Source of the DNA: an uncultured Candidatus Saccharibacteria bacterium
GTDB lineage: Bacteria > Patescibacteriota > Minisyncoccia > Portnoybacterales > UBA2143
Length of the DNA: 51,889 bases
Assembly (NCBI GenBank): GCA_964403725.1
Contig: CAYOHI010000001.1
Span: forward strand, 46,091 to 97,979
Direction of reading: 5' to 3'
The notes beneath the pieces were generated by a model. The model searched no databases, had not been told where the DNA came from, and saw only the letters and a list, made by a program, of their open reading frames with translations. How positions within the stretch are numbered: the stretch's first letter is position 1; the number at the start of each line of letters is the position of its first letter. This document shows, piece by piece, positions 18,951 to 34,429 of the stretch. Both the position numbers and the translations under genes were made by a program.

Positions 18951-19220
18951 TTATTTATATATCTTGTGAGTTCCGATTAAATAGAAACGAACTTCTTCTT
19001 TGCTTATAAACCTGAAAATTATTCGGTATTTATAATCAACAGAAAAAGACCAGTATTTTTCTATTTTCCCCTTGAACTTTCCATGAAGTTTGTGAGTTTT
19101 TAGTTTTGGATTAAATGGATTCTTAAGGAAAATACTTTCTTTTTCTTCAGCTAACTCCTTAACTTTATTAGGTAGTCTTTTGTAGTCACGGATAAACTTG
19201 TTTGAGTAATAAATTTTCAT
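18951..19220 (-). CDS. type II toxin, RelE/YafQ/ParE superfamily
   Basis: 89 aa. The pattern KTHKLHGKFKG...WSFSVDYKYRIIFRF...VRFYLIGTHKIY matches the RelE/YafQ core, with an RHH gene upstream. Confidence 0.75.
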   Translation of the reverse strand: MKIYYSNKFIRDYKRLPNKVKELAEEKESIFLKNPFNPKLKTHKLHGKFKGKIEKYWSFSVDYKYRIIFRFISKEEVRFYLIGTHKIYK

Positions 19221-19295
19221 TAAATTAATATACCCACCACCTCCACTCTTTATTCTTTTTAGGTATATAGCTTTCTTTCGACCTTACTTATTAAG

Positions 19296-19514
19296 TTATT
19301 TTAAATCTTTAAGAGAGCGCAGAGTCTTACCTTTGCCAGTATCAAAATCACGATCCATTTTTTCTAGTTTAGATAGTAATTTGCTTTCTTCTTCATAGTC
19401 ACGCAAAAGAGCGCGAAAGAATTCGCTAACACTAACATACTTATTCTTTTTTACTTCCCGCTTGATCATCTTTACAGTTTCAGCAGGAAGAGAAAGATTA
19501 ACAATACTACGCAT
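19296..19514 (-). CDS. ribbon-helix-helix (CopG/Arc-type) antitoxin
   Basis: 72 aa. N-terminus RSIVNLSLPAETVKMIKREVKKNKYVSVSEFFRALLRDY fits a beta-strand plus two helices of the RHH fold. Confidence 0.7.
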   Translation of the reverse strand: MRSIVNLSLPAETVKMIKREVKKNKYVSVSEFFRALLRDYEEESKLLSKLEKMDRDFDTGKGKTLRSLKDLK

Positions 19515-19565: not shown

Positions 19566-21062
19566 TTGTATTACAAGTTTATCAAAATCAAAATACTCTG
19601 TCAAGCCCTATTCTTAGGCCTGTTTTTACTCAATCCTCTATTAACTCTAGCCGCTACAGGCGATGTAATCATCAATGAAATTGCCTGGATGGGCACAGAA
19701 ACATCTTCAAGCGATGAATGGATTGAACTATACAATACAACTTCCCAAGATATTGATCTGACTGACTGGACCCTAGCTTCAACTGACGGAACGCCTGATA
19801 TCACCCTGTCTGGAACAATAGCTGCCAACAGCTATTTTTTATTAGAACGAACTGATGATAATTCAGTTCCTAGTATTACCGCAGACCAAATTTACACTGG
19901 TGCCCTAGGTAATTCTGGAGAGAATTTAGAATTGAAAGATAACAGCAGTAATCTGATTGATTCAGCTGATCATTCAGGCGGCTGGACAGCTGGCGACAAT
20001 TCAACCAAGCAAACAATGGAACTGGTCAGCAGCGCCTGGCAGACAAGCACTGATATTGGCGGAACCCCTAAGGCGCAAAACAGCATATCAACTTCAACCA
20101 CAACAGAAGATACCAGCACTACTACTGAATCCACTACCACAACCAGCAGTGATTCTACTGATTATCCTCCATTTGCCATTGCCGGAACGAATATTACGGC
20201 CCTGACTAACCAGGAAATCCCATTTGATGCCAGCGAATCATATGACAGAAGAAATGATCCTTTAACATACTTTTGGAATTTCGGAGATGGAGCCACTGAC
20301 ACAGAAAAGAAAACAACCCATACTTATGCCCATCCTGGACAATATTTAGTCACCCTGATGGTTTCAGATGGTGCTTTTGAATCTTTAGATATTATTACCG
20401 TAAATATTTATGACCAATCCGTCATTATTAGCGAATTTAGCAAAGATTGGATTGAATTATATAACCAGAGCGATTCAGTGGCCAATCTGACTGATTGGCA
20501 GTTAGTCAATTCAAGTAGTTCTCTTTTTATCTTCCCGCCCAACAGCCTGATTGGACCGAAGCAATTCCTTGTCTTGAGAAAAGAGATTACGAAGATGGAA
20601 TTCAACGATAATCAAATTAGCTTAATTTACCCAGATGGCTCGATTGGCATTGAAATCAATTATTCAACACAAGGAAAAGAAAATTTCTGCATTGCTTTTA
20701 ATGGATCTGACTATTTCTGGACGAATATGGCTACGCCTGGAACAAGCAACATTATTTCCACCCAGCCAATCATTCCAAAAAGCTTTTCAGTTAACAATCC
20801 GAAGATCCCAAAACAAGAAACAAACAATCTGACCCAAGAACAGAATTTCAATACCCAAAACCAAGCCACTACGACAAATACAATTCAACCTACAAAAGAA
20901 ATACCTAAAAACGAATTAAAAGACACCCAATCTGCATCCATATTCCAATCACAGCAAAATACAAAATCTAATCTGATTACATATATTATCCTAATTACCT
21001 CTGCTTCTTTGGTAATTAGCTGGATTGTAATCAAAATTAGGAAAAGGGTGTTAAAGCATTGA
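19566..21062 (+). CDS. surface protein: signal peptide, lamin-tail domain (LTD), Ser/Thr linker, PKD domain, second LTD, C-terminal TM anchor
   Basis: INEIAWMGT...DEWIELYN and VIISEF..DWIELYN are LTD signatures. FDASESYD...LTYFWNFGDG...HTYAHPGQYLVTLMVSDG is PKD. C-terminal helix LITYIILITSASLVISWIVI+KIRKR. The track start is TTG 19533, inside the operator; TTG 19566 gives a cleaner signal peptide. Confidence 0.75.
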   Translation: MYYKFIKIKILCQALFLGLFLLNPLLTLAATGDVIINEIAWMGTETSSSDEWIELYNTTSQDIDLTDWTLASTDGTPDITLSGTIAANSYFLLERTDDNSVPSITADQIYTGALGNSGENLELKDNSSNLIDSADHSGGWTAGDNSTKQTMELVSSAWQTSTDIGGTPKAQNSISTSTTTEDTSTTTESTTTTSSDSTDYPPFAIAGTNITALTNQEIPFDASESYDRRNDPLTYFWNFGDGATDTEKKTTHTYAHPGQYLVTLMVSDGAFESLDIITVNIYDQSVIISEFSKDWIELYNQSDSVANLTDWQLVNSSSSLFIFPPNSLIGPKQFLVLRKEITKMEFNDNQISLIYPDGSIGIEINYSTQGKENFCIAFNGSDYFWTNMATPGTSNIISTQPIIPKSFSVNNPKIPKQETNNLTQEQNFNTQNQATTTNTIQPTKEIPKNELKDTQSASIFQSQQNTKSNLITYIILITSASLVISWIVIKIRKRVLKH

Positions 21063-21087
21063 CAAATACTATCTTGGGTGGTATAAT
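21059..21087 (+). promoter_or_regulatory. consensus sigma70 promoter with extended -10
   Basis: TTGACA (21059-21064), 17-nt spacer, TGgTATAAT (TATAAT 21082-21087). It overlaps the stop codon of the LTD gene. Confidence 0.65.
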
Positions 21088-21145
21088 ACAGCCAGTACTA
21101 TAAAACAGATTTTGGAAATATATCGTTGACCCATACAGGAGAAGT

Positions 21146-21385
21146 ATGATGAATCAAGTTGAAAGAGACAGACTCATCAAAATGAGAGACTGGTTGGCCA
21201 GCATTCTCAGCGTAGCCGCAAGCATGATCGCTACCCTATCCGTTTTTATGAAAACTAACCCAGATGTACCTAAATCACTATTCGACGACATTGTTTTACT
21301 GCCATGTGTCGTTACCGGCCTTGCAACAGGCATTCTGATCTTATTGGCAGTGCATAAAGCTTTCGATATGAAACTTAAAAAATAA
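21146..21385 (+). CDS. small two-helix membrane protein (79 aa)
   Basis: Two hydrophobic segments (LASILSVAASMIATLSVF; LLPCVVTGLATGILILLAV). It has its own consensus promoter and terminator. Confidence 0.55.
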   Translation: MMNQVERDRLIKMRDWLASILSVAASMIATLSVFMKTNPDVPKSLFDDIVLLPCVVTGLATGILILLAVHKAFDMKLKK

Positions 21386-21410
21386 CGCGCACTAGCGCAC
21401 TAACCAAAAT

Positions 21411-21444: not shown

Positions 21445-21490
21445 ATTCCATCCATTGACACTGATTAAGGCATAATAGTATCATTAAGGT

Positions 21491-22027
21491 ATGAGCGGAC
21501 ACAGTCACTGGTCAACAATCAAGCATAAAAAGGGGGCGGAGGATGCGAAACGGGGTAAGATTTTTTCTAAAATATCCCGTTTAATTAGTGTCGCTGCTAA
21601 AGAAAAAGGAGGAGATCCTGATTCAAATCCAAAACTGAGAACCGCTATCAAGAAAGCCAATGAGGCGAACATGCCAAAAGACAAGATTGAGCATGCCATT
21701 AAAAGAGGAACCGGGCAATTAGAAGGATCTGTCATTGAAGAAGTAATCTATGAAGCCTACGGTCCAAACAGCGTCGCTATTATCATTGAAGGAATTACTG
21801 ATAATAGGAATAGGACCTCTGCTGAAATCAAGCATATCCTGTCAAAACATGGAGGAAAATTAGCCGAGCCGGGAAGCGTCAAATACATGTTTGATAAGAA
21901 TGACGAAGGATGGATTCCAAAATACCCGATGGAAGTTGATGAAAAGACCCAGAAGCAATTGGAAAAGATTTTTGAAGCTCTAGACGACAATGATGATGTC
22001 CAGGAAATATATAGCAATATAAAGTAA
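21491..22027 (+). CDS. yebC: YebC/PmpR-family protein, short form
   Basis: 178 aa beginning MSGHSHWSTIKHKKGAEDAKRGKIFSK, with DPDSNPKLRTAI and TDNRNRTSAEI. It is about 60 aa shorter than typical YebC. Upstream of ruvC, as in many bacteria. Confidence 0.85.
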   Translation: MSGHSHWSTIKHKKGAEDAKRGKIFSKISRLISVAAKEKGGDPDSNPKLRTAIKKANEANMPKDKIEHAIKRGTGQLEGSVIEEVIYEAYGPNSVAIIIEGITDNRNRTSAEIKHILSKHGGKLAEPGSVKYMFDKNDEGWIPKYPMEVDEKTQKQLEKIFEALDDNDDVQEIYSNIK

Positions 22028-22028
22028 T

Positions 22029-22505
22029 ATGGTAATTTTAGGCGTCGATCCAGGAACAGCATTAATCGGTTTTGGCGTTATCAAAGATACAAAAAGGAGG
22101 ATTGAAATGATTGAATACGGCTGTATTGAAACTGATCCTCAATATTCAACAGCCGAACGTCTTTTAAAACTAGATACGGATCTAGAGAAGATAATAAAGA
22201 AACATAAGCCAGACAGGGCTGCTGTTGAAGACATTTTCTTTTTTAAGAATCTAAAAACAGCAGTCAAAGTCAGCCAGGCTCGGGGGGTAATTTTAGCACG
22301 AATTGCCAAAATGAAGATTCCGGTATGCGAATACACTCCCCTGCAAGTAAAGCAAGCCGTGACCAGCTATGGCCGAGCTGAAAAGAAACAGGTCCAGCAA
22401 ATGGTCAAGCTTCTTTTAAACTTAAAAGAAATTCCAAAGCCGGATGACGCAGCTGATGCTTTGGCTGTCGCTATCTGTTGCGCTAATTCAAATATTAATT
22501 ACTAA
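22029..22505 (+). CDS. ruvC: Holliday junction resolvase RuvC
   Basis: 158 aa with ILGVDPGTALIGFGVI, AVEDIFFFKN and DAADALAVAICC. Confidence 0.92.
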   Translation: MVILGVDPGTALIGFGVIKDTKRRIEMIEYGCIETDPQYSTAERLLKLDTDLEKIIKKHKPDRAAVEDIFFFKNLKTAVKVSQARGVILARIAKMKIPVCEYTPLQVKQAVTSYGRAEKKQVQQMVKLLLNLKEIPKPDDAADALAVAICCANSNINY

Positions 22506-22510: not shown

Positions 22511-23188
22511 ATGTCATTTATCACCCAATTCATGATCAGTCAGGGAGTCCCCCAGGAGACCCTAATTTACCTTCTAATGCTGCCCATCGTAGCTACTGTC
22601 ATTGCCCTTGCTAGGCAAGTTATCGGCATCAAAGGATTCGGCATCTACACTCCCTTAATCATCGCTTTTGCCTTTTTGGCTACCGGATTGAAATATGGGA
22701 TAATTTTCTTTTTCACCATCCTAATAACCGGAACATTGGCCAGGCTGTTCATCAGAAAATTCAGGCTTCTCTATCTTCCCCGAATGGCCATTGCTTTGAC
22801 TGTCGTTGTCTTGGCTATTCTTGCAATCTTCTATTTCGGCGCCTATAATGGCCAGACGAATCTGATTAGCATTTCCATTTTCACGGTCTTGATCATGGTA
22901 ACTCTGGTTGAAAAATTCCTGGCTGCCCAGATTGAAAGAGGCGGCAAAGGAGCCATGTTTCTGACCATGGAAACCTTAATCCTTTCAATCATCTGCTATT
23001 GGGTAGCTTCCTGGGTCTGGCTGCAGGCCTTTATCCTGAGCCATCCTTTAGCCACGATCTTTTTAGCAATCATTATCAATATCTTCTTGGGCAAATGGAC
23101 CGGCTTGCGCCTGATCGAATACTTCCGATTCAGGGAAGTGATTAAAAGCATTGAAATACCCAAGAAAAAAAGACCGGGCAAAATTTAA
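22511..23188 (+). CDS. 7TM membrane protein of the '7TM-transglutaminase-associated' family (no transglutaminase domain here)
   Basis: 225 aa, polytopic. The N-terminus LMLPIVATVIALARQVIGIKGFGIYTPLIIAFAF matches the 7TM module that accompanies TIGR02291-type ATP-grasp genes (from memory). Confidence 0.6.
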   Translation: MSFITQFMISQGVPQETLIYLLMLPIVATVIALARQVIGIKGFGIYTPLIIAFAFLATGLKYGIIFFFTILITGTLARLFIRKFRLLYLPRMAIALTVVVLAILAIFYFGAYNGQTNLISISIFTVLIMVTLVEKFLAAQIERGGKGAMFLTMETLILSIICYWVASWVWLQAFILSHPLATIFLAIIINIFLGKWTGLRLIEYFRFREVIKSIEIPKKKRPGKI

Positions 23189-23193
23189 AAAAT

Positions 23194-24522
23194 ATGTTTG
23201 AATTCTTAGAAAAATCTCGTTATGTCTTAGGTATGAATGCCCGTATCCTGACATATATGCGGCCCTCTAATTCCTTGAGGGCTATTCGTATTGCGGATAA
23301 TAAATTGCTGGCCAAAAGGATATTGAAGAAGAACGGCCTGCCAGTCCTGCAGAATTACGCTGTCATCAGGAAACTTCATGAGTTGAGAGATTTTGACTGG
23401 AGTACTCTGCCTAACAGTTTTACCCTGAAGCCGAATAGAGGATTAGGTGGCGAAGGTATCCTGATAGTTTACGCTAAAAGGAAAAAATATCCTCATCCTT
23501 GGGTCAAGGCAGACAAGAAGATCATTACCATCAATGATTTGGAAAGCCATATCCTAAACATTCTTGAAGGAACATATTCCATGACCAGCGTTCCTGATGT
23601 TGCTTTTTTTGAAGAAAGGATCAAGCTATTGAAGCTTTTCAAGCCGTATTCCTTCAGAGGCATTCCTGATATTAGGATAATCGTCTATAACTCTGTCCCT
23701 ATCATGGCTGAACTCAGATTGCCTACTGAAGAATCTGGCGGTAAAGCCAATCTTCATCTGGGCGGTATCGGCGTCGGTATCGATATGGGCACGGGCGTAA
23801 CCACTACGGCCATTTGCAAGAACAAGATTATCGAATACGTGCCCAAAACCAGGCTACCTTTAAGAGGCATCCAGATTCCTGACTGGGAAGAAATCCTGAG
23901 ATTGGCAATCCACGCCCAGCAGATTACAAAGATCGGCTTCCTGGGCATCGATATCGCTATTGACCGGGAAAAAGGACCTGTTATCTTAGAATTGAACACG
24001 CGCCCGGGACTATCCATCCAGATTGCCAATTTGAGCCCCTTAAACGACAGACTGAAAAGAGTTAAAGGATTAAAGGTAAAGACTGTTACCAAAGGAGTGA
24101 AATTAGCCCAAGATCTATTCGGCGGTGAAGTAGAAGACGAACTGGAAGAGATTTCTGGAAGAAAAGTCGTCGGCATCAATGAGACCATTGAAATACTTGA
24201 TAAGAACAAGGAAAAGCATGCTATTATGGCCAAAGTCGATACCGGCGCTTACCGAACGACAATTTGTTCCAATCTGGCTAAGGAATTGGGCGTTGACCAG
24301 GTTATCGGATCAAAGAAAGTCAGAGGCGCCTTGGGTATGGAGGAGAGAAACATCGTCAATTTCTCCTTCTATATGGACAAGCGTATGGTCACTACTGAAG
24401 CTTTTGTCGCTGACAGGTCTGAGATGAAATATGATATTATTGTCGGCCGTCGAGATTTAAAAAGATTCTTAGTTGATCCAGCCAAAAATGTCTTCATGAA
24501 AAAGCCAATCAAGGCTAAGTGA
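23194..24522 (+). CDS. alpha-L-glutamate-ligase-like ATP-grasp enzyme fused to a retropepsin-like 'ATP-dependent zinc protease' (RimB-type) domain
   Basis: 442 aa. VLGMNARILTYMRPSN...IADNKLLAKRIL...FTLKPNRGLGGEGILIV...ELNTRPGLSIQ is ATP-grasp. The C-terminal AKVDTGAYRTTICSNLAKELG...DIIVGRRDL is the DUF785/Zn_protease-like module. Confidence 0.75.
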   Translation: MFEFLEKSRYVLGMNARILTYMRPSNSLRAIRIADNKLLAKRILKKNGLPVLQNYAVIRKLHELRDFDWSTLPNSFTLKPNRGLGGEGILIVYAKRKKYPHPWVKADKKIITINDLESHILNILEGTYSMTSVPDVAFFEERIKLLKLFKPYSFRGIPDIRIIVYNSVPIMAELRLPTEESGGKANLHLGGIGVGIDMGTGVTTTAICKNKIIEYVPKTRLPLRGIQIPDWEEILRLAIHAQQITKIGFLGIDIAIDREKGPVILELNTRPGLSIQIANLSPLNDRLKRVKGLKVKTVTKGVKLAQDLFGGEVEDELEEISGRKVVGINETIEILDKNKEKHAIMAKVDTGAYRTTICSNLAKELGVDQVIGSKKVRGALGMEERNIVNFSFYMDKRMVTTEAFVADRSEMKYDIIVGRRDLKRFLVDPAKNVFMKKPIKAK

Positions 24523-26036
24523 ATATGATCAAAGATTTAGAGACACAAAAACAATATTTAAAAGATTTAAAGACCCCCATATTCGGAGCCGGAGTTTATG
24601 TCTGGGACAGATTGGGCTTAGAAAATATCATTGATAATTACAGGATTCTAGCCCTGCGCTATAGTCTGGATACAGAATTAATCGAAAAAGATATTGAAAT
24701 ATTATCTTTGGAAAAAGGCATGGGCAACAGGCATATTAGAGAACCTCGCAATGCTACTACTGTCATCGGTCATCCAAAAACAAGAAAATTCTTAGACAAA
24801 TTCACTTCTCAAGAAAGACCAGCCATCCTAGTCTACAAGCCTTCAACTAAAATGGAGAAAATTTGCAAAGAGAATAATTGGAATTTACTGGCCAATCCTA
24901 CTTCTTTTGGCAAGGAAACATTGGAAAACAAGATTAAATTCAGGAAAATACTAAAGGAAATCGGCGTTCCTGTACCGCCAGGAAAAATATCTTCAGTTGA
25001 TAAATTACATTACGGTCATCTGATGAATAAATACGGATTGCCTTTCGTTATCCAGCATCCGACTAAAGGCGGCGGCAAAGGAACTTTTTTCATTAACAAT
25101 CAAGAAGATTTTGATAAAGCCTTTAAGAAATTGAAAGGCAGATGGAAGCCTGGATTGCAAGACGATGCAGAGACGAAATATGAGCAAGTCCCTGAAGCCT
25201 TAGTGGCTAAATATATTCAAGGATCATCCCCTAGTATAACTGGATGTGTTACCAGACACGGCATCATTTCAACGAATCTTCAGCATCAGATTGTCGATAT
25301 TCCTGAATTATTCAGCCCAGAAAAGGGATCTGGCCTGTTCTGCGGCCATGATTGGACAGCTTCGGAATTCGATGATGAAGTCAAAAGTCAGGCCTATGAA
25401 GCTGTTGAAAAAATCGGCCAATATTTCAAATCATTAGGTTACAAGGGTATTTTCGGATTAGATTTTGTCTTAGATAGAGAAACCAACAAACTCTATACTG
25501 TAGAATGCAACCCTCGACTGGTCGGCTCTTTCCCTGTTTTGCCTATGACACAAGAACTGAACAACGAGCCTTCAATTTTAGCTTTCCATATTATGGAATT
25601 CCTTAACTTAGATTATGAGATTGATTTGGATGAAATCAACCGCCTGATGAGACAGGACAAGATCGGAACCCAGATGATATCGCACAACCTGACCAAGCGA
25701 TGGGCCAGAAACCATAAACAGATGAAAGCAGGTGTTTACAAACTAGACAATGATGAATTAAAATACTTAAGGCCTGGGTACAAGCTGACACACATTAAAA
25801 ATGATGAAGAGTTCGTCTTGGCTGACGGCATCCAGTTCAAGAAATCCCCTTTCAGCCCCAATAGAAGATTAGGTCGCATCTTAACCCTAAAAAGAGTATT
25901 GGATGATTCATACAAGCAATTAACACCTTGGGCTCTGAAAGTCACTGAAGAGATACATAAGGCCCATGATTTAAAACCAGTCAGATTTCTAAAAATTAAG
26001 AAGTTTTTTAACCCAAATATTCTGGCCAAAGGATAA
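24519..26036 (+). CDS. ATP-grasp domain protein (505 aa), substrate unknown
   Basis: KIKFRKILKEIGVPVP...PFVIQHPTKGGGKGTFFI...GIFGLDFVLDRETNKLYTVECNPRLVGSFP. 4-nt overlap with the previous gene. Confidence 0.7.
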   Translation: MNMIKDLETQKQYLKDLKTPIFGAGVYVWDRLGLENIIDNYRILALRYSLDTELIEKDIEILSLEKGMGNRHIREPRNATTVIGHPKTRKFLDKFTSQERPAILVYKPSTKMEKICKENNWNLLANPTSFGKETLENKIKFRKILKEIGVPVPPGKISSVDKLHYGHLMNKYGLPFVIQHPTKGGGKGTFFINNQEDFDKAFKKLKGRWKPGLQDDAETKYEQVPEALVAKYIQGSSPSITGCVTRHGIISTNLQHQIVDIPELFSPEKGSGLFCGHDWTASEFDDEVKSQAYEAVEKIGQYFKSLGYKGIFGLDFVLDRETNKLYTVECNPRLVGSFPVLPMTQELNNEPSILAFHIMEFLNLDYEIDLDEINRLMRQDKIGTQMISHNLTKRWARNHKQMKAGVYKLDNDELKYLRPGYKLTHIKNDEEFVLADGIQFKKSPFSPNRRLGRILTLKRVLDDSYKQLTPWALKVTEEIHKAHDLKPVRFLKIKKFFNPNILAKG

Positions 26037-27053
26037 ATGATTTCAGTCACCGAAAAAAACTTAAAAGATATTTTTAAATATGGAGGCCAGTATTTAATTT
26101 TAAAAGAGTCTCTTAAAAAGAAGATCAAATGCTCCGTTTTAATCCAGAAAAAGGGCAATAGGAAGAATATATATATCAAGCTTAAGAAAGATGGTAAATC
26201 CCGTTGGTTGAGCCACCAAAAGGGATTTTTTAATTCAAAGCTCAGTTGTGAATTGGCTTTGTCGAAATATTTAACTTACAAAGCTCTGGAATCGATAAAA
26301 TCACCCATCCCCCAATTTATTAAGATTAACAAGACCGATAAAATTGGTGAAATTAAGATTCCAGAACCCTGGGTTATCAAGCCGATCAACCAGACTAAGG
26401 GACGAGACGTAGTAATCAAGATTAAGACCAAAGAACGGCTTAAAAAAGTGGCCAGAAGATTATTCAAGAAATACAAATATCTGATGATTGAAGAATTCAT
26501 CCAAGGAAAAGATTACAGACTCTTAATTTTAAACAACAAGTTAATTGGCGCTGTCAGAAGAATCCCAGCCAAAATAAAGGGAGACGGAATCCATAATATC
26601 AAGCAATTAATTGAAATTAGCAACAAAAAAGAACGAAGAATTAAAGCCAAACAACTGGCTCCATTTATTAAAAAAATTAAAATTGATTCAGAAGTCAAAA
26701 GATGTCTTGCCCAGAAGAAATTAAGATTGACTTCTGTTCCAAAAAAGAATCAGATTGTCCAAGTCAGAAAAAATGCCAATTTCAGCACTGGCGGCGAGGC
26801 TGAAGACGTAACCAAATCAGTCCATCCTGATAATATTAAAATAGCCCGCAAAGCAGTAAAAGCTCTGGGGCTAAAGATCGGAGGGGTTGATATTATTACC
26901 AAGGATATCTCAAAATCTATTCTTAAAAGCAAAGGCAAGGTTATTGAAATTAACGGAATTCCTTCGCTTTGGCTCCATCATTTCCCGAATCAAGGCAAAG
27001 GCCAGAATACAACTAGTAAAGTTATTGATTATTTATTTAAAAATCACCTTTGA
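26037..27053 (+). CDS. ATP-grasp ligase resembling the cyanophycin-synthetase G-domain / RimK group
   Basis: 338 aa. GKDYRLLILNNKLIGAVRRIPAKIKGDGIHNIKQLIE...ANFSTGGEAEDVTKSVHPDNIKIARKAVKALGLKIGGVDIITKDI closely follows the CphA ATP-grasp consensus as I remember it. It starts on the base after the previous stop. Confidence 0.7.
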   Translation: MISVTEKNLKDIFKYGGQYLILKESLKKKIKCSVLIQKKGNRKNIYIKLKKDGKSRWLSHQKGFFNSKLSCELALSKYLTYKALESIKSPIPQFIKINKTDKIGEIKIPEPWVIKPINQTKGRDVVIKIKTKERLKKVARRLFKKYKYLMIEEFIQGKDYRLLILNNKLIGAVRRIPAKIKGDGIHNIKQLIEISNKKERRIKAKQLAPFIKKIKIDSEVKRCLAQKKLRLTSVPKKNQIVQVRKNANFSTGGEAEDVTKSVHPDNIKIARKAVKALGLKIGGVDIITKDISKSILKSKGKVIEINGIPSLWLHHFPNQGKGQNTTSKVIDYLFKNHL

Positions 27054-27850
27054 TAAACACTGAAATGAGGAGCGGTAATCTGAGATATTTCCAGACAAGT
27101 TATCCCTTCTTTTCTGTACCGATTACAGCTGCCAGAACCCCCGTTATGCTCATAAACAACATCTTTTCGAGGGAAACCAGACGCTACGAGACTATCAAAG
27201 ACATCTTTTACATCACTAGGATCATCGCTGCGATCCGTTAAATTAACATCAACACATGTCCCGTTATAATGACAGGGAGACTGATGATTAACTGTTGGAG
27301 GCCAACCTTCAGTCACCCACCAATCAGAACAAGTAGGATCACTGTTGCACCTCGCATAAGCATCATTCAACAAGGTTGCCATAACAGGCGTAATCTTATT
27401 ACTACTACCAGGCTTAACCGGTACTGTCATAGCCACGCAAGTCGGACAGTCAACGCTGTGCTGCATTGGCGGCATCATAGTCACACTTGGCAGGTTAGGA
27501 GATTGATTCTGCAGCAATACGGGATTGATGGTATTAAGGATTAAGTAAGTAGCTAGTCCCAGTACTAATCCAGACAGGGCTCCGGTAATGTAGTCTTTAG
27601 CCTTATCCTTGGAAGTGACTGTGTCTGAGAGCATATAGAGGAATCCTCCATAGACCAGCATGCCCAGTGCTGCTATGCCTACTGCACCCAGTCCTATGAA
27701 GTATATATAGCTCAGATACTGAGGTAATGTGAATGTAGCCATCGAAGTCGCGCCTGGGAGGGTTATCTCTACTTGGTAGCCGGCCAAAGCAAAATTAACA
27801 ACAAAAAAGAGGTTTAATAATATAATTAGTATTAAAACTAATTTTTTCAT
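27044..27850 (-). CDS. T4SS-type pilin module (signal peptide + two TM helices) fused to a Cys-rich C-terminal domain with a LAS/M15 zinc-peptidase-like motif
   Basis: 268 aa. Residues 23-127 are near-identical to residues 25-129 of 41408..41965. The C-terminus carries VTEGWPPTVNHQSPCHYNGTCVDV (H-x7-D spacing as in SxHxxGxAxD) and a distal APHFSV. ATGA overlap with the tyrS stop. Confidence 0.6.
   Translation of the reverse strand: MKKLVLILIILLNLFFVVNFALAGYQVEITLPGATSMATFTLPQYLSYIYFIGLGAVGIAALGMLVYGGFLYMLSDTVTSKDKAKDYITGALSGLVLGLATYLILNTINPVLLQNQSPNLPSVTMMPPMQHSVDCPTCVAMTVPVKPGSSNKITPVMATLLNDAYARCNSDPTCSDWWVTEGWPPTVNHQSPCHYNGTCVDVNLTDRSDDPSDVKDVFDSLVASGFPRKDVVYEHNGGSGSCNRYRKEGITCLEISQITAPHFSVYQR
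27471..27784 (-). repeat. copy 1 of a 314-bp direct repeat (pilin module)
   Basis: Hand alignment to 41580-41893 gives about 20 mismatches in 314 positions. The stretch 27606-27724 is identical to 41715-41833 (119 nt). Confidence 0.9.
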
Positions 27851-29049
27851 AAATTAACCTTAATAAATTTCCTTTTGCCTACTTGGATAATCATTCCCTT
27901 TTTCACTTCAATCTCTTTTTGCCAGTCTTTAACTTTCTGATCATCAATCTTGACTCCACCTTGCTCAACCAATCTTTTAGCTTCTCCTTTACTAGGAGTC
28001 ATCTTTGTTTCTACTAATAAATCTAAAATTTGATGTTTCTTTTTATCTGTCTTGAAAACAGGGATTTCTGTTGGCTTGTCTTTGTCTTTAAATACTTTTT
28101 CAAATTCTTTCTCTGCTTTTTCTGCATCCTTCTTGCTGTAATAAAGAGCAACCAATTCTCTAGCTAACCTCGCTTTGGCATCTCTTGGATTCAATTTATC
28201 AGCCTTCATATCGCTTTCCATTTTTTTAATTTCATCCATATCCACGCTTGTACACAATTCTAATCCTGGAATAATCAAGCCGTCAGACCAAGCCATGACT
28301 TGGCCGAACATTTCATTAGGACTTTCATCTAGGTTAATGATATTGCCTTCTGTCTTACCCATCTTCTTGCCTGATGGATCAGCTAGTAATTTAGTGGTTA
28401 GGACGAATTTTTCTTTGTTTTTAATAGCCTTCATCAAGTCTCTTCCTCTGAGCATATTGAAAGTCTGGTCATTGCCTCCGATTTCCAAATCAACATCCAT
28501 GCCGACACTGTCATAACCTTGGGCTAAAGGATAGAGAAATTCATGCAGATAGATCGGCTCATTATTCTTAATCCTTTCTTGGAACATATCCCTGACCATC
28601 ATCTGCTGAACTGTGAAATTAGAGGCGATTTCAATCAAATCAATAAAGCTCAGCTTATCGCTCCATTCACTGTTGTTCATAACCTTGGCCGGATTCTTTC
28701 CTGAAAAATCCAATATCTTACCAGCTTGTTCCTGATAGAATTCAGAATTCTCAAGAACTTCCTTTCTGGTCATCTTCTTGCGGGCTGCCGTCTTGTCGGT
28801 CGGATCGCCAATCATGCCCGTAAAATCGCCGATCAAGAAAATTACTTCATGGCCTAATCTCTGGAATTGGGCTAATTTCATAATTTGGATAGCATTGCCG
28901 ATATGCAAAGACTTAGCGCTAGGATCAAAACCACAATACAACCTAATTTTCTTATCAGACCTCAATACTTTTTCAAAAGTTTCCCTATCAGGGTAAATAT
29001 TCTCTACCCCACGGGTCAAAACCTCCTTAATTTGTTGTTCTTTATTCAT
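27847..29049 (-). CDS. tyrS: tyrosyl-tRNA synthetase
   Basis: 400 aa from ATG 29049 (MNKEQQIKEVLTRGVENIYPD). HIGH motif SLHIGNA, KMSKS-like KKMGKT and a C-terminal S4 domain (SKGEAKRLVEQGGVKIDDQKV). The track's 88-codon N-terminal extension looks non-coding. Confidence 0.9.
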   Translation of the reverse strand: MNKEQQIKEVLTRGVENIYPDRETFEKVLRSDKKIRLYCGFDPSAKSLHIGNAIQIMKLAQFQRLGHEVIFLIGDFTGMIGDPTDKTAARKKMTRKEVLENSEFYQEQAGKILDFSGKNPAKVMNNSEWSDKLSFIDLIEIASNFTVQQMMVRDMFQERIKNNEPIYLHEFLYPLAQGYDSVGMDVDLEIGGNDQTFNMLRGRDLMKAIKNKEKFVLTTKLLADPSGKKMGKTEGNIINLDESPNEMFGQVMAWSDGLIIPGLELCTSVDMDEIKKMESDMKADKLNPRDAKARLARELVALYYSKKDAEKAEKEFEKVFKDKDKPTEIPVFKTDKKKHQILDLLVETKMTPSKGEAKRLVEQGGVKIDDQKVKDWQKEIEVKKGMIIQVGKRKFIKVNL

Positions 29050-29116
29050 AATATTGCCCTTATCTACTGATATATTAAATATATCACCCTTGATAAAAAT
29101 AAGCAATTCTGTCAAA

Positions 29117-31648
29117 ATGTATAATATGTTAATAAGAAGTGGAAAAGTAGTAAGAACATTTATCAAAATCTTAATATTCCTAATACTAATCGGTTTCCTT
29201 TTTGGAATCGGCGTTTTAGCATATTTTGCCAAAGATCTACCAGATCCGACTAAGATCGACGAACGGCAAGTCGTAGAATCGACCAAAATATATGACAGGA
29301 CTGGCCAAGTCATCCTTTATGATATCCATGGCGAAGAAAAAAGAACCATTATTCCTTTTGAAGATATCCATCAGCACGTCAAAGACGCCACTATTGTCGC
29401 TGAAGACGATAATTTCTACCACCATATCGGCATAGATTGGCGGGGTATTATTAGATCTTTTATCGCCAACTTTAGGAATAGTAGAATTTCACAAGGCGCT
29501 TCGACTATCACCCAGCAATTCATTAAAAATGCATACTTAGGTGGCCCTCAGGCAGAAAGGACGTATACCCGTAAAATTAAGGAAGTGATTCTATCAGTCA
29601 TTATGGAAAGAAAGTATTCCAAGGATGAAATCCTAGGATTCTACTTAAATCAAGTCCCATACGGCTCAAACGCCTATGGCATTGAAGCAGCAGCTCAGAC
29701 TTTCTTCAATAAATCAGCTAAAGAATTGAATTTGGCTGAAACCAGCCTTTTAGCTGCTCTGCCTAACGGCCCAAGCTATTACTCCCCTTACGGATCCCAC
29801 CCTGAAGAATTAAAGGAAAGACAAGAATATATTCTGGACAGGATGGTTAAATTCGGATACATCAATAAAGAAGAAGCAGAAAGCGCCAAGCAGGAAGAAT
29901 TAAAATATGCTTCTAAGGGAGATTTGAAAGCGCATCATTTTGTCACCATGATTCAGGAATATTTAGAAGAAGAATACAGCCGAAACTACAGCGATATCAA
30001 TATGGCTGGACTGAAAGTTTATACTACCCTAGATTGGGATCTACAGCAATTAGCTGAAGAGATCATTACAGAAAAAGCGGAAACAAATGAAAAAACCTAC
30101 AGAGCCAGCAATGCGGCTCTAGTCAGCATCGATCCAAAAACAGGACAAGTATTAACTCTGGTCGGATCCAAGAATTACAGTGAGGACCAGTTCAACGTAG
30201 CTACCAGCCCGAACAGGCAACCTGGATCTTCTTTCAAGCCTTTTGCTTACGCTATGGCATTTGAAAAAGGATATAGTCCGGCCAGTATTCTTTTTGATCT
30301 AGAAACGAGCTTTGGCGAATTCGGCCCGGTCGGCGAAGAGAAAGAATACAAGCCGAACAACTATGACTTGAAATTCAGAGGACCGATCAGCATGAGAGAC
30401 TCCTTAGCCCAGTCAGTCAACGTTACTTCAGTTAAAGCCCTTTACTTAGCTGGCGTTAACGATACCATCAATCTAGCCCAGGATATGGGCATCACTACCT
30501 TAAAAGACAGAGGCAGATACAGCCTATCTCTGGTTCTTGGCGGCGGAGAAGTTAAATTAATCGATGAAACGGCAGCTTACGGAGTTTTCGCCACAGAAGG
30601 AACCAGACATCCAACTAAATTAATCTTAAGAATTGAAGATTCCAAGGGAAATATTTTAGAAGAATACGAAGATGATCCAAAGAAAGTTTTAAGCGAACAG
30701 ACAGCCAGGCAGATCAGCGATGTCTTATCGGATGAAGCTGCCAGAATCCCTGTCTTTGGACCTAAGTCAGACCTATACCTATCTGGCCGGCCAGCTGCTG
30801 CCAAAACCGGTACAACTCAAGATTACGCCGATGGTTGGACAATCGGATACACCCCTAGTCTGGTCACTGGCGTCTGGGCTGGGAATAATGATTTTACCGA
30901 TAAGATGAAGCCTGGGGCAGCCGGCCTTTATGTCGCCTCCCCTATTTGGAACGAATTCATGAGTAGAGCTTATGAATTAAAAATTGAAGATAATGATAAT
31001 ACTATTACTGATGAAGAAAATATTATTGAAAACGAATTTTTCTTACCTGAGAAAACAGAACAATTCACTTCTCCGGAACCAGTAGCTAGTAGCACTACGC
31101 CAATGATTAATGGAGAATTGGCATATATGAATAAGGTGAAAATTGACAGGATTTCTGGGAAATTAGCTACTGAACTGACTCCGCCTGATCTGATTACAGA
31201 AAAAACTTACCAGGAAGTCCACTCAATCCTTTACTATATCGACCAAGATGACGAACAATTCAATAATTGGGAACCAGCTGTTCAGACTTGGGTTTCAAGC
31301 CAGTCATGCTCTTCTGGGAATATTTGTTACAATCAAAATCCACCAACTGAATATGACGACATCCATACAAAAGAAAACCAGCCTGATGTAGAAATCACTT
31401 CCCCAATGGAAGATACGACTATTAACGGCTCAAGCTTAACCATTCAAGCTGATGCATTCGCTAAATTAGGAATTAAGCAAGTTGATTTCTTCTTAAACGA
31501 TCAATTAATTGGAACTGATAGAACTCTGCCTTATTCAGTAACTTTTAATCCTATTCCCTATTTAACAGGTGATGAACAAATAATTAAAGTAAGAGCCTAT
31601 GATATGGTTTTAAATAGGCAAGAAGATGAGATTAATGTAGATTATTAA
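29117..31648 (+). CDS. class A penicillin-binding protein (glycosyltransferase + transpeptidase) with a C-terminal Ig-like domain
   Basis: GT51 motifs EDDNFYHHIGID, GASTITQQ and RKIKE. Transpeptidase motifs SSFKP, SVN and KTGT. The last ~90 aa are beta-rich and Ig-like. Start taken at ATG 29117 (MYNMLIRSGK, before the TM helix). Confidence 0.9.
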   Translation: MYNMLIRSGKVVRTFIKILIFLILIGFLFGIGVLAYFAKDLPDPTKIDERQVVESTKIYDRTGQVILYDIHGEEKRTIIPFEDIHQHVKDATIVAEDDNFYHHIGIDWRGIIRSFIANFRNSRISQGASTITQQFIKNAYLGGPQAERTYTRKIKEVILSVIMERKYSKDEILGFYLNQVPYGSNAYGIEAAAQTFFNKSAKELNLAETSLLAALPNGPSYYSPYGSHPEELKERQEYILDRMVKFGYINKEEAESAKQEELKYASKGDLKAHHFVTMIQEYLEEEYSRNYSDINMAGLKVYTTLDWDLQQLAEEIITEKAETNEKTYRASNAALVSIDPKTGQVLTLVGSKNYSEDQFNVATSPNRQPGSSFKPFAYAMAFEKGYSPASILFDLETSFGEFGPVGEEKEYKPNNYDLKFRGPISMRDSLAQSVNVTSVKALYLAGVNDTINLAQDMGITTLKDRGRYSLSLVLGGGEVKLIDETAAYGVFATEGTRHPTKLILRIEDSKGNILEEYEDDPKKVLSEQTARQISDVLSDEAARIPVFGPKSDLYLSGRPAAAKTGTTQDYADGWTIGYTPSLVTGVWAGNNDFTDKMKPGAAGLYVASPIWNEFMSRAYELKIEDNDNTITDEENIIENEFFLPEKTEQFTSPEPVASSTTPMINGELAYMNKVKIDRISGKLATELTPPDLITEKTYQEVHSILYYIDQDDEQFNNWEPAVQTWVSSQSCSSGNICYNQNPPTEYDDIHTKENQPDVEITSPMEDTTINGSSLTIQADAFAKLGIKQVDFFLNDQLIGTDRTLPYSVTFNPIPYLTGDEQIIKVRAYDMVLNRQEDEINVDY

Positions 31649-31709: not shown

Positions 31710-32813
31710 TTAAACCTTAATCGGCATAATTACATAAGTATATAATGTGTCGCCCACTGGCCTGGCTACGACAGGCTTTGATTCATCATTTAATCCTAGA
31801 ATTACCTTATCGCTGAAAATATTATTCAATCCGTCTAAGAGATACTTGTAATTAAATATTACTTCCACTTCTTTCCCTGTAATTTCAGCTTCAATTTTTG
31901 ACTTATTCTCACCAATATCAGCATCTTTGGCTAAAACCTCGATAAATGACTTTTTAGGATTGATAGTCATCCTAATATCATTAATCTTTCCACTAAACAA
32001 GCTAGCTACTTTAATATTACTAATCAACTCGCTTCGATCAACAGTAACCTGGGTCTGAAAGCTGCCTGGGATAATCTGTTGATAATCTGGGTATTGTCCT
32101 TCAATAAGCCTTGAAATGACTTGGGCATAGCCTAAATCGAATAAGATTTGGTTACCAGACAGGATCACTTCTACTTCAGTATCTTCTTCCCCTAAGATCC
32201 TGTTAATTTCCTGGATTGTCCTCTGGGGGATAATAATAGATTGAGTTTTAGGCGCTTTTGAGCCATTTATTTCCAAATCTTTTTCTGCTAGGCGAAAACT
32301 ATCCGTTGCCGCTAATTTAATCTTATCCTTATCGAACTTCATGAAAATACCAGATATTTCAGGCCTTGATTCTGATAAGGAAGCCATTTCCACTACTTGA
32401 GAAAAGCCATTCTTCAAAACAATACCTTTGGTTTTCAATAAAGGCTTATCTTTAATCTTAGGAATGATTGGAAAATCATCAGCTGGCAATCCTTTTAAAG
32501 ATGCTTTGAATTTCTTGCATTTAACATCTAGTTGATTACCCTTAGTCTTTAACTCGACTTTTTCATTAGGTAGGTTATTAACAAAATCAGCTAATAGCCT
32601 GGCTGGAATAGTGATACTTCCCTTATCCTGGACTTTCCCGTTAACCCAAGAATTAATGCCGATTTCCAAATTAGTTGAAGATATCTTTAATCTACTTCCC
32701 TCCACTGTTAATAGAAGATTATTTAGGATCGGTAGAGTTAAATTACGACCGATAATCTTCTCAGTAATATTCAATGCTTGTTTTAAATTTTCTTGGAGGC
32801 AAATTATGTGCAT
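31710..32813 (-). CDS. dnaN: DNA polymerase III beta sliding clamp
   Basis: 367 aa with typical N-terminus (LKQALNITEKIIGRNLTLPILNNLLL) and C-terminus (ESKPVVARPVGD..YTYVIMPI). Directly downstream of dnaA. Confidence 0.93.
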   Translation of the reverse strand: MHIICLQENLKQALNITEKIIGRNLTLPILNNLLLTVEGSRLKISSTNLEIGINSWVNGKVQDKGSITIPARLLADFVNNLPNEKVELKTKGNQLDVKCKKFKASLKGLPADDFPIIPKIKDKPLLKTKGIVLKNGFSQVVEMASLSESRPEISGIFMKFDKDKIKLAATDSFRLAEKDLEINGSKAPKTQSIIIPQRTIQEINRILGEEDTEVEVILSGNQILFDLGYAQVISRLIEGQYPDYQQIIPGSFQTQVTVDRSELISNIKVASLFSGKINDIRMTINPKKSFIEVLAKDADIGENKSKIEAEITGKEVEVIFNYKYLLDGLNNIFSDKVILGLNDESKPVVARPVGDTLYTYVIMPIKV

Positions 32814-32959
32814 AAGTTTTTATTTAATAATTAATAATATAAATATTTAAAAAAATTATTATTACTATTAGCCTATCTAAATACGGGGAAAAGTCAATAT
32901 ATTGGGTTAGTAATTGATAATTCTAAATTGTTAAACTGTTAATTTCTCTCTTGTTAATC

Positions 32960-32968
32960 TGTGGATAA
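32960..32968. promoter_or_regulatory. perfect DnaA box
   Basis: TGTGGATAA is the reverse complement of TTATCCACA. It lies in the AT-rich dnaA-dnaN spacer, 20 nt from the dnaA stop. Confidence 0.6.
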
Positions 32969-32988
32969 AATATGAATTATTTTTTGAC

Positions 32989-34350
32989 TTAATTATACAG
33001 TCGTTCTTTAATTAAGTTTAACTCATGTTGGAGAGAATCATTACTCTCTATTTCCTTATTGATTTTTTGACAGGCATACATAACAGTGGTGTGGTCACGG
33101 CCGCCTAATTTCTCTCCGATGTATGGATATGATCCATTTAATTCATTCCTAATCAAATACATACTGATCTGTCTTGGTCTGACTAATTGTTTTTTTCTTG
33201 AATGGGTGAATAGATCATCGAATTTAATGTCATAAAAGTCAGATACAGCTTTGAATATCTTCTTACAATTAGTCATTTTCTTTGGAGTATTGATAATCTG
33301 AGAAAGGATTTTAGGAACATTCTTGACTGTCGGAGTGGTATTGGTAATTTGGGAATGAGCGATTATCCTGTTTAAAGCCCCTTCTAATTCTCTAATATTG
33401 CTTTGGATATTCTTAGCGACATATTCTAAAACGTCTTCTGATACCTTATACTTCTTCTCTTCTGTCTTATTCTTAAGGATAGCCAGTCTTGTCTCTAGAT
33501 CCGGCTGGGATATGTCAGCGATCATTCCTCCTTCAAATCTAGACCTTAGCCTGTCTTCTAAAGTTGAAATAGCTTTAGGCGGTCTATCGGAGCTAATGAT
33601 AATCTGCTTATTCTTTTGGTATAGGGCATTGAAAGTATTGAAGAATTCTTCCTGAGTTTTTTCCTTGCCAGCGATGAATTGAATATCATCAATAATCAGG
33701 GTATCGATCTTATGATATTTCTTCTTAAAGGCTTCCATTCCTCTATTACGCAAGGCATCAACCAATTCACCAGTGAATTTTTCAGAACTCAAGTATTTAA
33801 CCTTCTTATTCTTATCTTTCTTAGATAATTCATTTCCAATTGCCTGGAGTAAATGGGTTTTTCCCAAACCGACTCCGCCATAAATAAAAAGGGGGTTGTA
33901 TAAAGTACCAATATGTTTGGTTACCCCCTTGCCAGCTGCTTGAGCTAATTCATTAAAAGATCCAATAATGAAATTATCAAAAGAATATTTAGGATTTAAA
34001 TTAGTTTCTTTGTTAAGATTGAATTCTTGGAAATTCAATTGGCTGTCTATCTGATTGGGTTTTGTCTTCTTTTTTGTTTTGGTATTACTTACAGTTACAG
34101 CTTCATTACCACCGATAACGAATTTTATTTCCTTAACATCAGGTGAATTATTTCTAAGAATCTTAAGAATCAGCTTATTATACTTATTCTCCAACCATTC
34201 TTTAGTAAAGCCATTAGGAGCGCTTACTGTAATCATTCCATCTTTCTTGGAATGGATTTTAGTATTCCTGAACCAAGTAATGAAACTGGCTTTGGATATA
34301 GTTAACTCAACCTCCCCTAAAACAGTTTGCCAAAGATTTTTTAAGTTCAT
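32989..34350 (-). CDS. dnaA: chromosomal replication initiator DnaA
   Basis: 453 aa with Walker A GGVGLGKTHLL, Walker B LIIDDIQF, and sensor and DNA-binding region GGRDHTTVMYACQKI. Confidence 0.96.
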   Translation of the reverse strand: MNLKNLWQTVLGEVELTISKASFITWFRNTKIHSKKDGMITVSAPNGFTKEWLENKYNKLILKILRNNSPDVKEIKFVIGGNEAVTVSNTKTKKKTKPNQIDSQLNFQEFNLNKETNLNPKYSFDNFIIGSFNELAQAAGKGVTKHIGTLYNPLFIYGGVGLGKTHLLQAIGNELSKKDKNKKVKYLSSEKFTGELVDALRNRGMEAFKKKYHKIDTLIIDDIQFIAGKEKTQEEFFNTFNALYQKNKQIIISSDRPPKAISTLEDRLRSRFEGGMIADISQPDLETRLAILKNKTEEKKYKVSEDVLEYVAKNIQSNIRELEGALNRIIAHSQITNTTPTVKNVPKILSQIINTPKKMTNCKKIFKAVSDFYDIKFDDLFTHSRKKQLVRPRQISMYLIRNELNGSYPYIGEKLGGRDHTTVMYACQKINKEIESNDSLQHELNLIKERLYN

Positions 34351-34429
34351 AAAGATAACAGATTAGTAATTTAGACTTATTGTATCATAATAGCAGAAAA
34401 TTCAAAACAACTCAATTTTGTTAATAAGC

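Follow-up and report, generated by a model that had tools for sequence, protein, structure and literature searches.

A minimal Rlo/Rim-like ligase-retropepsin core with a swappable amidoligase cassette in Patescibacteria

What is made by four tightly packed genes, three of them encoding ATP-grasp ligases, that follow ruvC in the chromosome of a bacterium from a lineage with small genomes? Patescibacteria have genomes of about 1 Mb and few biosynthetic pathways. Even so, the lineage considered here devotes 4.5 kb to ligases that consume ATP, within a syntenic block that is among its most conserved. We analysed this locus in a 51,889-nt stretch of contig CAYOHI010000001.1 (below, the window), a segment of a Patescibacteria (candidate phyla radiation, CPR) chromosome near oriC with gene neighbours typical of CPR. 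The four genes encode a seven-transmembrane (7TM) protein (P1), a fusion of an ATP-grasp ligase with a retropepsin-like protease (P2), and two further ATP-grasp proteins (P3 and P4). The P1-P2 pair is a minimal, reverse-fused RloBC/RimBK-like core; it has no transglutaminase domain, is widespread in Patescibacteria and is coupled to a swappable cassette of amidoligases. With a probability of about one half, the locus is a minimal Patescibacterial system of the RloB/RloC/RloA (and RimK/RimB) type, performing membrane-docked, ATP-dependent carboxyl-terminal extension and trimming, with accessory ligases that diversify the product.

The P1 gene (22511-23188, + strand, 225 amino acids) has its ATG 5 nt after the ruvC stop codon, and another 5 nt separate it from the P2 gene (23194-24522, +, 442 amino acids). 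The P3 gene (24519-26036, +, 505 amino acids) starts with GTG in a 4-nt overlap GTGA, or after a 2-nt gap if the alternative ATG at 24525 is used. The P4 gene (26037-27053, +, 338 amino acids) follows at 0 nt (TAAATG), and its stop shares 10 nt with a convergent gene (27044-27850, - strand) that forms the boundary of the locus. These coordinates and junctions, read in the DNA, agree exactly with the earlier note on this sequence, which had described four co-directional genes downstream of ruvC with 0-5-nt spacers or a 4-nt overlap. The genes yebC (21491-22027, +; Pfam TACO1/YebC) and ruvC (22029-22505, +; Pfam RuvC; NCBIfam RuvC equivalog, 229 bits) are co-directional with P1-P4, with spacers of 1-5 nt. 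A promoter-like site TTGACA-18-TATCAT (21455-21484, +) lies just 5' of yebC and has 11 of 12 consensus matches; by consensus match only, a transcript covering yebC-ruvC-P1-P2-P3-P4 is likely to begin there. No terminator-like sites were seen on the + strand upstream of 26645-26660, a weak site inside P4. Homologues at 50-89% identity number in the hundreds to thousands; all four proteins are products of real conserved genes and not of chance open reading frames (ORFs).

A triad of 7TM protein, ATP-grasp ligase and protease was reportedly predicted originally by Iyer et al. in 2009. The rloABC genes of Pseudomonas aeruginosa encode such a triad, with a DUF785 protease (Lormand et al. 2025, mBio, PMC12239564). 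The RloA proteases belong to the secreted retropepsins and cleave stretches of at least 8 glutamates, and their triple mutant shows hypo-osmotic sensitivity, misshapen cells and antibiotic sensitivity (PMC12239564). More generally, rlo mutants have beta-lactam phenotypes, and rlo matters for osmotic tolerance, antibiotic resistance and biofilm (PMC12239564). Deletion of rloB or rloC suppresses the loss of the RloA proteases (PMC12239564), and thus the substrate of the protease is whatever the ligase and the 7TM protein make. Mutations of the RloA residues contacting poly-glutamate (polyE), K46, R114 and R137, weaken polyE cleavage in vitro, most strongly R114A and R137A, and these two do not complement in vivo (PMC12239564). 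RloC is 24% identical to RimK in Pseudomonas, and RloB was reported to be 96% proteobacterial (PMC12239564). RimB needs 5-6 or more contiguous Glu residues and stimulates the synthesis of poly-alpha-Glu by RimK; an active RimB-RimK hybrid exists, in which RimB forms the N-terminal part (Little et al. 2025, JBC, PMC11957791). The view that the triad is predicted only computationally is therefore outdated by the rloABC genetics and the RloA and RimB biochemistry (PMC12239564, PMC11957791). We found no paper tying Patescibacteria to the triad, and none following up the rloBC biochemistry.

By its domain matches, P2 is a soluble fusion of an N-terminal RloC/TIGR02291-type ATP-grasp ligase and a C-terminal RimB/RloA-like retropepsin; no transmembrane or hydrophobic segment was found in it. 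The ATP-grasp domain (23251-24066, +; residues 20-291) matches PF14397 at 1.3e-65. Residues 8-310 correspond to positions 9-314 of the 317 in the TIGR02291 'alpha-L-glutamate ligase-like' model (1.4e-78), with a score of 264 bits against an equivalog cut-off of 314 bits. This is the nearest family, the next best being the RimK family with 40 bits. The ATP/Mg positions K79, D253, E266 and N268 are invariant in nine diverse family members. The retropepsin-like domain (24217-24507, +; residues 342-438) is recognised by PF05618 (Zn_protease/DUF785) on residues 369-437 at 1.8e-7, and contains AKVDTGAYRT. It also has weak gag-asp_proteas and Asp_protease_2 matches and weak matches to RloA/RimB models. 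A profile built on it aligns with the entire Ddi1 retropepsin domain (1.4e-5) and also hits the RloA-type structures 9g59 and 9g58 (1.8e-5). The C-terminal DUF785 domain with this motif, as proposed earlier, is confirmed; the ligase that carries it has TIGR02291 as its nearest family but stands below the equivalog cut-off.

The catalytic D349-T-G-A (24238-24249, +) is invariant, and a GR(R)D motif occupies residues 418-421; both K347-V-D349-T-G-A and G-R-(R)-D are absolutely conserved among the same nine proteins. In the alignment with 9g59, residues K347, D349, R385 and R408 of P2 fall on K46, D48, R114 and R137 of RloA. Of these, K347, D349 and R408 are invariant, and R385 is retained in eight of the nine. 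An acidic linker GGEVEDELEEISG (24121-24159, +; residues 310-322) lies directly before the protease domain. Its pattern in the family alignment is GGE(V/I)E(E/D)ELEEISG, with G310, G311, E314, E318, E319, S321 and G322 invariant. The linker may, speculatively, be a pseudo-substrate or a self-processing site. A role as a RimB-type cleavage site stays speculative too: the linker is conserved, yet has no contiguous run of 5-6 or more Glu as RimB requires. Homologues of P2 are numerous, with 3637 database proteins at E < 1e-5, the best 120 of them at 65-89% identity.

P1 matches PF14402 (7TM_transglut) at 3.9e-30, which bears out the 7TM module of the earlier note. It aligns with positions 311-507 of the 508 in the NCBIfam RloB model only, that is, with the membrane half. 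A transglutaminase or PF14400-type domain is absent from P1 by domain search and hydropathy, just 16 residues preceding the first transmembrane helix. The topology predicted from hydropathy and the positive-inside rule has seven helices, with the N-terminus outside, the C-terminus inside and a basic cytoplasmic tail. The AlphaFold2 model is all helical (mean predicted local distance difference test, pLDDT, 78.6). Among 31 homologues, 55 columns are invariant.

When a single genome was scanned for each GTDB species, 249 genomes were found to encode the P2 fusion. The best 80 loci of these 249 were fetched, ORF-called and BLASTed; their labels are Portnoybacteria, Moranbacteria, Parcubacteria, Spechtbacterales and generic CPR. 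The order yebC-ruvC-7TM-fusion is retained in essentially all 80 loci, with RuvC less than 1.5 kb 5' of the fusion gene in 78. The 7TM gene adjoins the fusion gene in every assessable genome, in 75 by a strict rule. Five loci fall outside this rule: two have ORF-extension overlaps (L066, L075), one has a 338-nt gap (L078), and one is cut upstream by the contig edge (L054). The fifth (L046, 6275-8344 of CAYVZN010000011.1) has one 689-residue ORF with 7TM_transglut, ATPgrasp_ST and Zn_protease domains. If real, this fusion places the C-terminus of the 7TM protein in the cytoplasm and indicates physical coupling of the components.

A variable cassette on the same strand occupies the region between the fusion gene and the convergent block of tyrS and PBP1 (a class A penicillin-binding protein, PBP). 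Its content was counted in the 69 loci whose sequence continues for at least 2.5 kb downstream. Six have no extra ATP-grasp gene, 33 have one, 22 have two, seven have three and one has four; thus one to four additional ligases are present in 63 loci (91%). The most frequent are P4/CphA-G-like genes (26 loci), P3-type genes (25), RimK-family genes above the TIGR00768 cut-off (23) and RimK/TTL-like genes (14). These are followed by the MATCAP/DUF1704 (TIGR02421 'QEGLA') metallocarboxypeptidase (7), a YdjC deacetylase (5), a double ATP-grasp protein (2), a Mur ligase whose best match is the M domain of CphA (positions 481-860 of 862, 1e-61; 2), a GT1 glycosyltransferase (1) and a MurF-like ligase (1). 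P3 and P4-like genes stand together in 6 of the 69, two of which (L007 and L008) are from among the closest relatives of the window. Co-occurrence of the genes in related genomes, which the earlier note expected, is therefore found for the 7TM gene with the fusion and for this core with extra ligases, but not for the pair of P3 and P4.

The M-like Mur ligase occurs in cassettes of the Moranbacteria type (L064, about 8368-11500; L051, 8480-9742). In L064 it directly follows a G-domain-like ATP-grasp gene, and the pair resembles a split cyanophycin synthetase without the N domain. MATCAP genes lie within the cassette at 3242-4351 of L087, 3404-4528 of L089, 3050-4165 of L045 and 10907-12244 of L065. 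Eukaryotic MATCAP removes the C-terminal Tyr of tubulin, opposing an ATP-grasp ligase. By analogy, the pairing of MATCAP with ligases resembles a prokaryotic cycle of addition and removal at a C-terminus. The RimK-family, CphA-M-like and MATCAP enzymes of the cassette all act on peptide carboxyl termini. This agrees with the multi-step non-ribosomal polymer or peptide-tagging pathway at the membrane that was proposed earlier, and supports it in part; however, the four genes are not a fixed unit. Several of the metagenome-assembled genomes (MAGs) L054, L058, L061 and L072-L084 are labelled Bdellovibrionales, Micavibrio or Saccharibacteria despite Moranbacteria-type synteny (yebC-ruvC-7TM-fusion-ligases-PBP1), and the taxonomic labels of these records look unreliable.

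P4 aligns with positions 204-473 of the 862 in the CphA model TIGR02068 (6e-77; 259 versus 850 bits) and with PDB 7lgm (3.7e-48; about 40% identity, read off the alignment and not computed). Weaker alignments link it to the GshF C-domain and to the ATP-grasp domain of N-acetylglutaminylglutamine (NAGGN) synthetase. The N and M domains of CphA are not in P4. We mapped its residues onto TeCphA1 via the 7wac alignment, taking the roles from Miyakawa et al. 2022 (PMC9427784). The positions kept are E72 (E215, recognising the Arg side chain of the last primer unit), K77 and K115 (K220 and K261, ATP binding), R161 (R309, holding the peptide C-terminal carboxylate), R175 and N248 (R323 and N394, binding the beta-carboxylate of the incoming Asp), S250 (S396, lining the small Asp-binding pocket), and D285 and E304 (D431 and E450, Mg binding). 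Three positions are replaced: the P-loop His critical for catalysis (H267) by K121, the residue of oxyanion stabilisation (G456) by S310, and the Arg that clamps the incoming Asp by its alpha-carboxylate (R458) by W312. The residues for holding a peptide C-terminal carboxylate and an acidic side chain are thus present in P4, and the clamp by which CphA1 grips the incoming alpha-carboxylate is missing. The replacements recur in four close orthologues, with K for H267 in three and W for R458 in all four.

Since H267 and R458 are replaced, also in most or all close orthologues, P4 is by its sequence a G-domain homologue and not a cyanophycin synthetase. Since the counterparts of K220, K261, R309, R323, N394, S396, D431 and E450 are kept, it probably activates a peptide C-terminal carboxylate. 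The earlier assignment as CphA G-domain-like holds for the alignment, which covers the whole G domain, but not for the two defining CphA1 residues. Over 28 P4-like paralogues K77, K115, D285, E304 and N306 are invariant, whereas the substrate-choice positions of CphA1 are hypervariable. This pattern suggests paralogues that are active but diversified. Stand-alone relatives of P4 with 320-350 amino acids are common in metagenomes (8808 representatives at E < 1e-3). The net charge of P4, +15.7 per 100 amino acids, is the highest in the window, where the median is +1.0; unusually basic ligases fit a polyanionic substrate.

Domain search assigns P3 to generic ATP-grasp, and its structural model indicates a soluble three-domain ATP-grasp protein with a biotin carboxylase (BC)/PurK-like fold. 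The AlphaFold2 model (pLDDT 90.1) matches BC and PurK in Foldseek at E 4e-17, with a template modelling (TM) score of 0.5-0.6 and 12-15% identity. The NCBIfam model PRK06524 'biotin carboxylase-like' spans residues 7-464, with a score of 163 against a cut-off of 684. A novel N-terminal domain is ruled out: the approximately 150 residues that the earlier note had left unassigned are the ordinary pre-ATP-grasp N domain of the BC-like fold, as seen both in the Foldseek comparison and in the span of PRK06524. Similarity to solved enzymes at the sequence level is limited to the ATP-binding region, and for this reason we draw no conclusion about the substrate. A closer solved relative among L-amino-acid ligases, BesA and LdmS was also considered and rejected, as profile and fold searches gave only BC/PurK-type matches in the ATP-binding region. 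The motifs GGGKGTF and E329/N331/R333 (ECNPR) are invariant.

The P3 family has 296 detectable members, and all those with a source name come from Patescibacteria, Parcubacteria, Paceibacterota or Spechtbacteria. In the 25 loci that have them, the P3-type genes are always inside the cassette. Three divergent homologues were looked up separately: two lie in 7TM-fusion-MATCAP-x-P3 cassettes, and the contig of the third is too short. No biotin carrier or carboxyltransferase gene was found near P3. The public gene call for P3 has 438 amino acids, starting from the internal Met68, whereas homologues conserve all 505, including the N-terminus. The deposited annotation is therefore probably truncated, the true start being GTG at 24519 or ATG at 24525.

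Housekeeping identities, which would have spoken against a dedicated pathway in the earlier note, were tried for P2-P4 and rejected. Ddl, GshB, RimK-S6 ligase, AccC, PurK and CphA all score below curated cut-offs. The scores are 40 versus 143 bits for P2 with the RimK family and 20 versus 243 with Ddl; 41 versus 723 for P3 with AccC; and 43 versus 243 for P4 with Ddl and 27 versus 331 with S6 ligase. The biotin carboxylase score of P3 and the CphA score of P4, given above, are similarly low. P2 has no match to the S6-Glu ligase model.

The following mechanism would account for these observations. The tightly spaced genes yebC-ruvC-P1-P2-P3-P4 would be transcribed together. P1 would be embedded in the membrane, its C-terminus facing the cytoplasm as hydropathy and charge predict, and hold P2 there; we infer this docking from the strict adjacency of the two genes and from the single locus in which 7TM, ligase and protease form a natural triple fusion. 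The ATP-grasp half of P2, judging by its family, would form an acyl-phosphate on a C-terminal carboxylate and add Glu repeatedly. The amino acid added by the core is most likely alpha-linked L-glutamate, and the product probably a short, acidic, Glu-based peptide. The retropepsin half would dimerise, bind oligo-Glu via K347, R385 and R408 and cut it, setting the length or releasing the product; it may also stimulate the ligase, as RimB does RimK. This step is suggested by the conserved residues and by the published RimB and RloA biochemistry. The soluble basic ligases P3 and P4 would add other residues, for example a primer, a cap or a branch. Finally, P1 might receive the product or let it pass, so that it reaches the cell surface or envelope, a speculative step that draws on the periplasmic RloA of Pseudomonas. 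A bolder version, which we put forward only tentatively, is a modular, membrane-coupled non-ribosomal peptide polymerase beside the origin in much of Patescibacteria (at least 249 species-level genomes), its invariant core (7TM plus ligase-protease) and hypervariable ligase cassette (RimK-like, CphA-G-like, CphA-M-like, BC-like, MATCAP) jointly building a lineage-specific acidic or branched poly-amino-acid on the surface. If true, this would be a previously unrecognised envelope component, and swapping of cassettes could affect host attachment or phage evasion of these episymbionts.

Several points weigh against extension and trimming as the function of the locus. In no member of the system, not even rloABC, has anyone demonstrated a product, an acceptor or export. 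Glutamate is suggested only via the distant similarity to RimK and the specificity of the protease, and the substrate of an RloC-type ligase has never been assayed. The retropepsin domain of P2 is about 30 residues shorter than RloA and has no region aligning with the long flaps; because of this, its specificity could differ from that of RloA. The protease is cytoplasmic here and periplasmic in Pseudomonas, so the systems might work differently. The triple fusion of L046 is a single MAG case and could be natural or an assembly indel. Nothing indicates that P1 transports anything, and Foldseek found no relative of it with a solved structure (best E 0.37, TM about 0.4, NqrD/RnfE). The basic charge of the ligases is in part an effect of a Lys-rich, AT-rich genome. 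P3 and P4 could belong to unrelated pathways. The locus sequence matched only DNA runs (marine and seawater metagenomes), and no RNA data were found. The nearby substrate peptide that the earlier note thought worth seeking did not turn up either: no ORF of the window ends in at least three acidic residues, and no run of at least five Glu occurs in the window.

The same genes can be read in other ways. The system may perform reversible C-terminal tagging of one specific protein, in the manner of RimK and S6 or of tubulin tyrosination and glutamylation. The locus would then be a regulatory switch and would not make a polymer; the target would possibly be a membrane protein recruited by P1, and the retropepsin, or MATCAP in the relatives, would remove the tail. 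We regard this as possible but doubtful. RimK and RimB provide a precedent on S6, relatives combine TTL/RimK-like ligases with a MATCAP-family carboxypeptidase, and ligase and protease share a compartment and a polypeptide. However, S6-type tagging needs no 7TM partner, which is obligatory here, and both the RimK-family score of P2 and the missing match to the S6-Glu ligase model count against it. Further, the hypervariable ligase content is hard to square with a single conserved target; the window holds no candidate acceptor, and a 79-residue ORF upstream is not conserved. An unlikely explanation is a cytoplasmic peptide osmolyte or a nitrogen/carbon storage polymer (NAGGN-like, cyanophycin-like or poly-Glu), with P1 as a membrane sensor or regulator, for example an osmotic one. 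It is consistent with the homology of P4 to the CphA G domain, the GshF C-domain and the NAGGN synthetase ATP-grasp, with the G-like and M-like genes of L064, with the osmotic phenotypes of rlo mutants, and with the cytoplasmic location of all three ligases and the protease. On the other hand, P4 has neither the N and M domains of CphA nor the residues H267 and R458, the locus contains neither a cyanophycinase nor an amidotransferase, the 7TM family has no recognised sensor or output domain, and in Pseudomonas the proteases acting on the product are secreted.

A further reading is that peptides are attached to peptidoglycan or to a glycopolymer of the envelope. The ligases would act on the carboxylate of a sugar acid or stem peptide, and P1 would present or flip a lipid-linked acceptor. 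The name of PF14397, 'sugar-transfer associated', the YdjC deacetylase, GT1 glycosyltransferase and MurF-like ligase of some cassettes, and the cell-shape and beta-lactam phenotypes of rlo mutants point in this direction. But few cassettes contain these genes (5, 1 and 1 of 69 loci), and the retropepsin residues indicate a peptide substrate of the polyE type. The class A PBP gene, although always near the locus, is separated from it by the convergent tyrS and belongs to the general conserved synteny near oriC. Decoration is improbable. It is more improbable still that P1 and P2 alone form a system, P3 and P4 being ligases without connection to it that occupy a slot prone to recombination between the core and tyrS. 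The uneven distribution of P3 (25 of 69) and P4-like genes (26 of 69), with only six loci having both, the six loci with the core alone, and the arrival of P4 together with a pilin-like gene absent from most relatives would agree with this. Yet the slot is filled almost only by amidoligases and peptide-trimming enzymes (in 91% of loci), on the same strand and with spacers or overlaps of 0-10 nt, and genes of the P3 family are found only in this cassette.

The ruvB...dnaA block around the locus has its synteny kept throughout the clade. The genes dnaN and dnaA are on the - strand in the 31710-34676 region (31.7-34.4 kb), and cumulative GC skew reaches its minimum at 33-34 kb. The gap at 34351-34675 is the probable site of the replication origin, which would place the ligase locus 7-12 kb from oriC. 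The convergent gene at 27044-27850 (-) encodes a 268-residue protein with an N-terminal signal or transmembrane region and a PF18895 match (type IV secretion system (T4SS) pilin-like, 6e-4, below the cut-off). Its Cys-rich C-terminal domain contains the motif WVTEGWPPTVNHQSPCHYNGTCVDVN (TEGW..H..HYxGxxVD), which aligns, at an E of only 0.16, with the Hedgehog N-domain at its zinc site (LAS/DD-peptidase fold). The product may be a pilin-anchored cell-wall peptidase. The pilin-peptidase gene in which the locus was earlier said to end is thus real as to the 10-nt overlap and plausible, if weakly supported, as to the name. The gene is missing at this position in nearly all related loci, its sole homologue (in L071) sitting elsewhere. 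Next to it, the tyrS ORF (27847-29313, -; 488 amino acids, where relatives have about 400) and the class A PBP ORF (29054-31648, +; TTG start) overlap head-to-head by about 260 nt. The true starts of both are probably internal, for example at MNKEQQ... for the tyrosyl-tRNA synthetase.

Upstream of the locus, a perfect sigma-70 consensus (TTGACA-17-TATAAT with TG; region 21059-21402) precedes the 79-residue ORF with two transmembrane segments (21146-21385), and a hairpin with a T-run follows at 21383-21402. No homologue of this ORF was found among loci L001-L091. A YafQ/RelE-like toxin (89 amino acids) and a ribbon-helix-helix (RHH) antitoxin (72 amino acids) are encoded at 18951-19514 (-), between ruvB and the gene of an LTD-PKD surface protein; L001 and L002 have a comparable pair at this place. 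Further on in the window, a polysaccharide flippase gene is followed by two tandem Wzy_C/O-antigen-ligase-like genes (36494-40266), and 43073-44875 encodes a VirB4/TraG-type T4SS ATPase. These are additional envelope and pilus functions close to the origin.

With this locus, the clinically relevant rlo-type system extends well beyond Proteobacteria, to which it was described in 2025 as essentially confined. The fusion protein is 50-89% identical across orders. The minimal version, with no periplasmic domain, ligase and protease on one chain, and a 7TM fusion, shows the essential parts, and is a simpler entry for finding the product of the family. The variable ligase cassette would be a new case of modular peptide diversification independent of non-ribosomal peptide synthetases. 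If the product is a surface polymer, it bears on how uncultured episymbionts build their envelope.

Compared with known systems, the locus shares with rloABC the operon-linked 7TM_transglut protein, an ATP-grasp ligase (in P2 nearest to TIGR02291, though below its equivalog cut-off) and the RimB-like retropepsin with K-x-D-T-G-A and the Arg contacts. Unlike RloB, P1 has no periplasmic inactive-transglutaminase domain. RloA is a secreted stand-alone protein with a signal peptide, whereas the P2 retropepsin has no signal peptide, is fused to the C-terminus of the ligase and is cytoplasmic. The additional ligases P3 and P4 after the core and the Patescibacterial host also set the locus apart from rloABC. 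The cytoplasmic ATP-grasp ligase joined to a retropepsin is analogous to the situation in RimK/RimB and RimBK, where the protease RimB is oligo-Glu-specific. However, the order in P2 is ligase before protease, and RimB comes first in RimBK; P2 has an obligatory 7TM partner, no link to S6 was found, and its ligase belongs to the RloC/ATPgrasp_ST clade, well below the RimK-family cut-off. P4 is similar to CphA1 over the whole G domain, but stands alone, without N and M domains and with H267, G456 and R458 replaced. P3 has the three-domain architecture of BC and PurK, with the glycine-rich loop GGGKGTF and the E-x-N-x-R Mg/phosphate motif (ECNPR). Unlike BC and PurK, its family is restricted to Patescibacteria and tied to the 7TM-fusion core.

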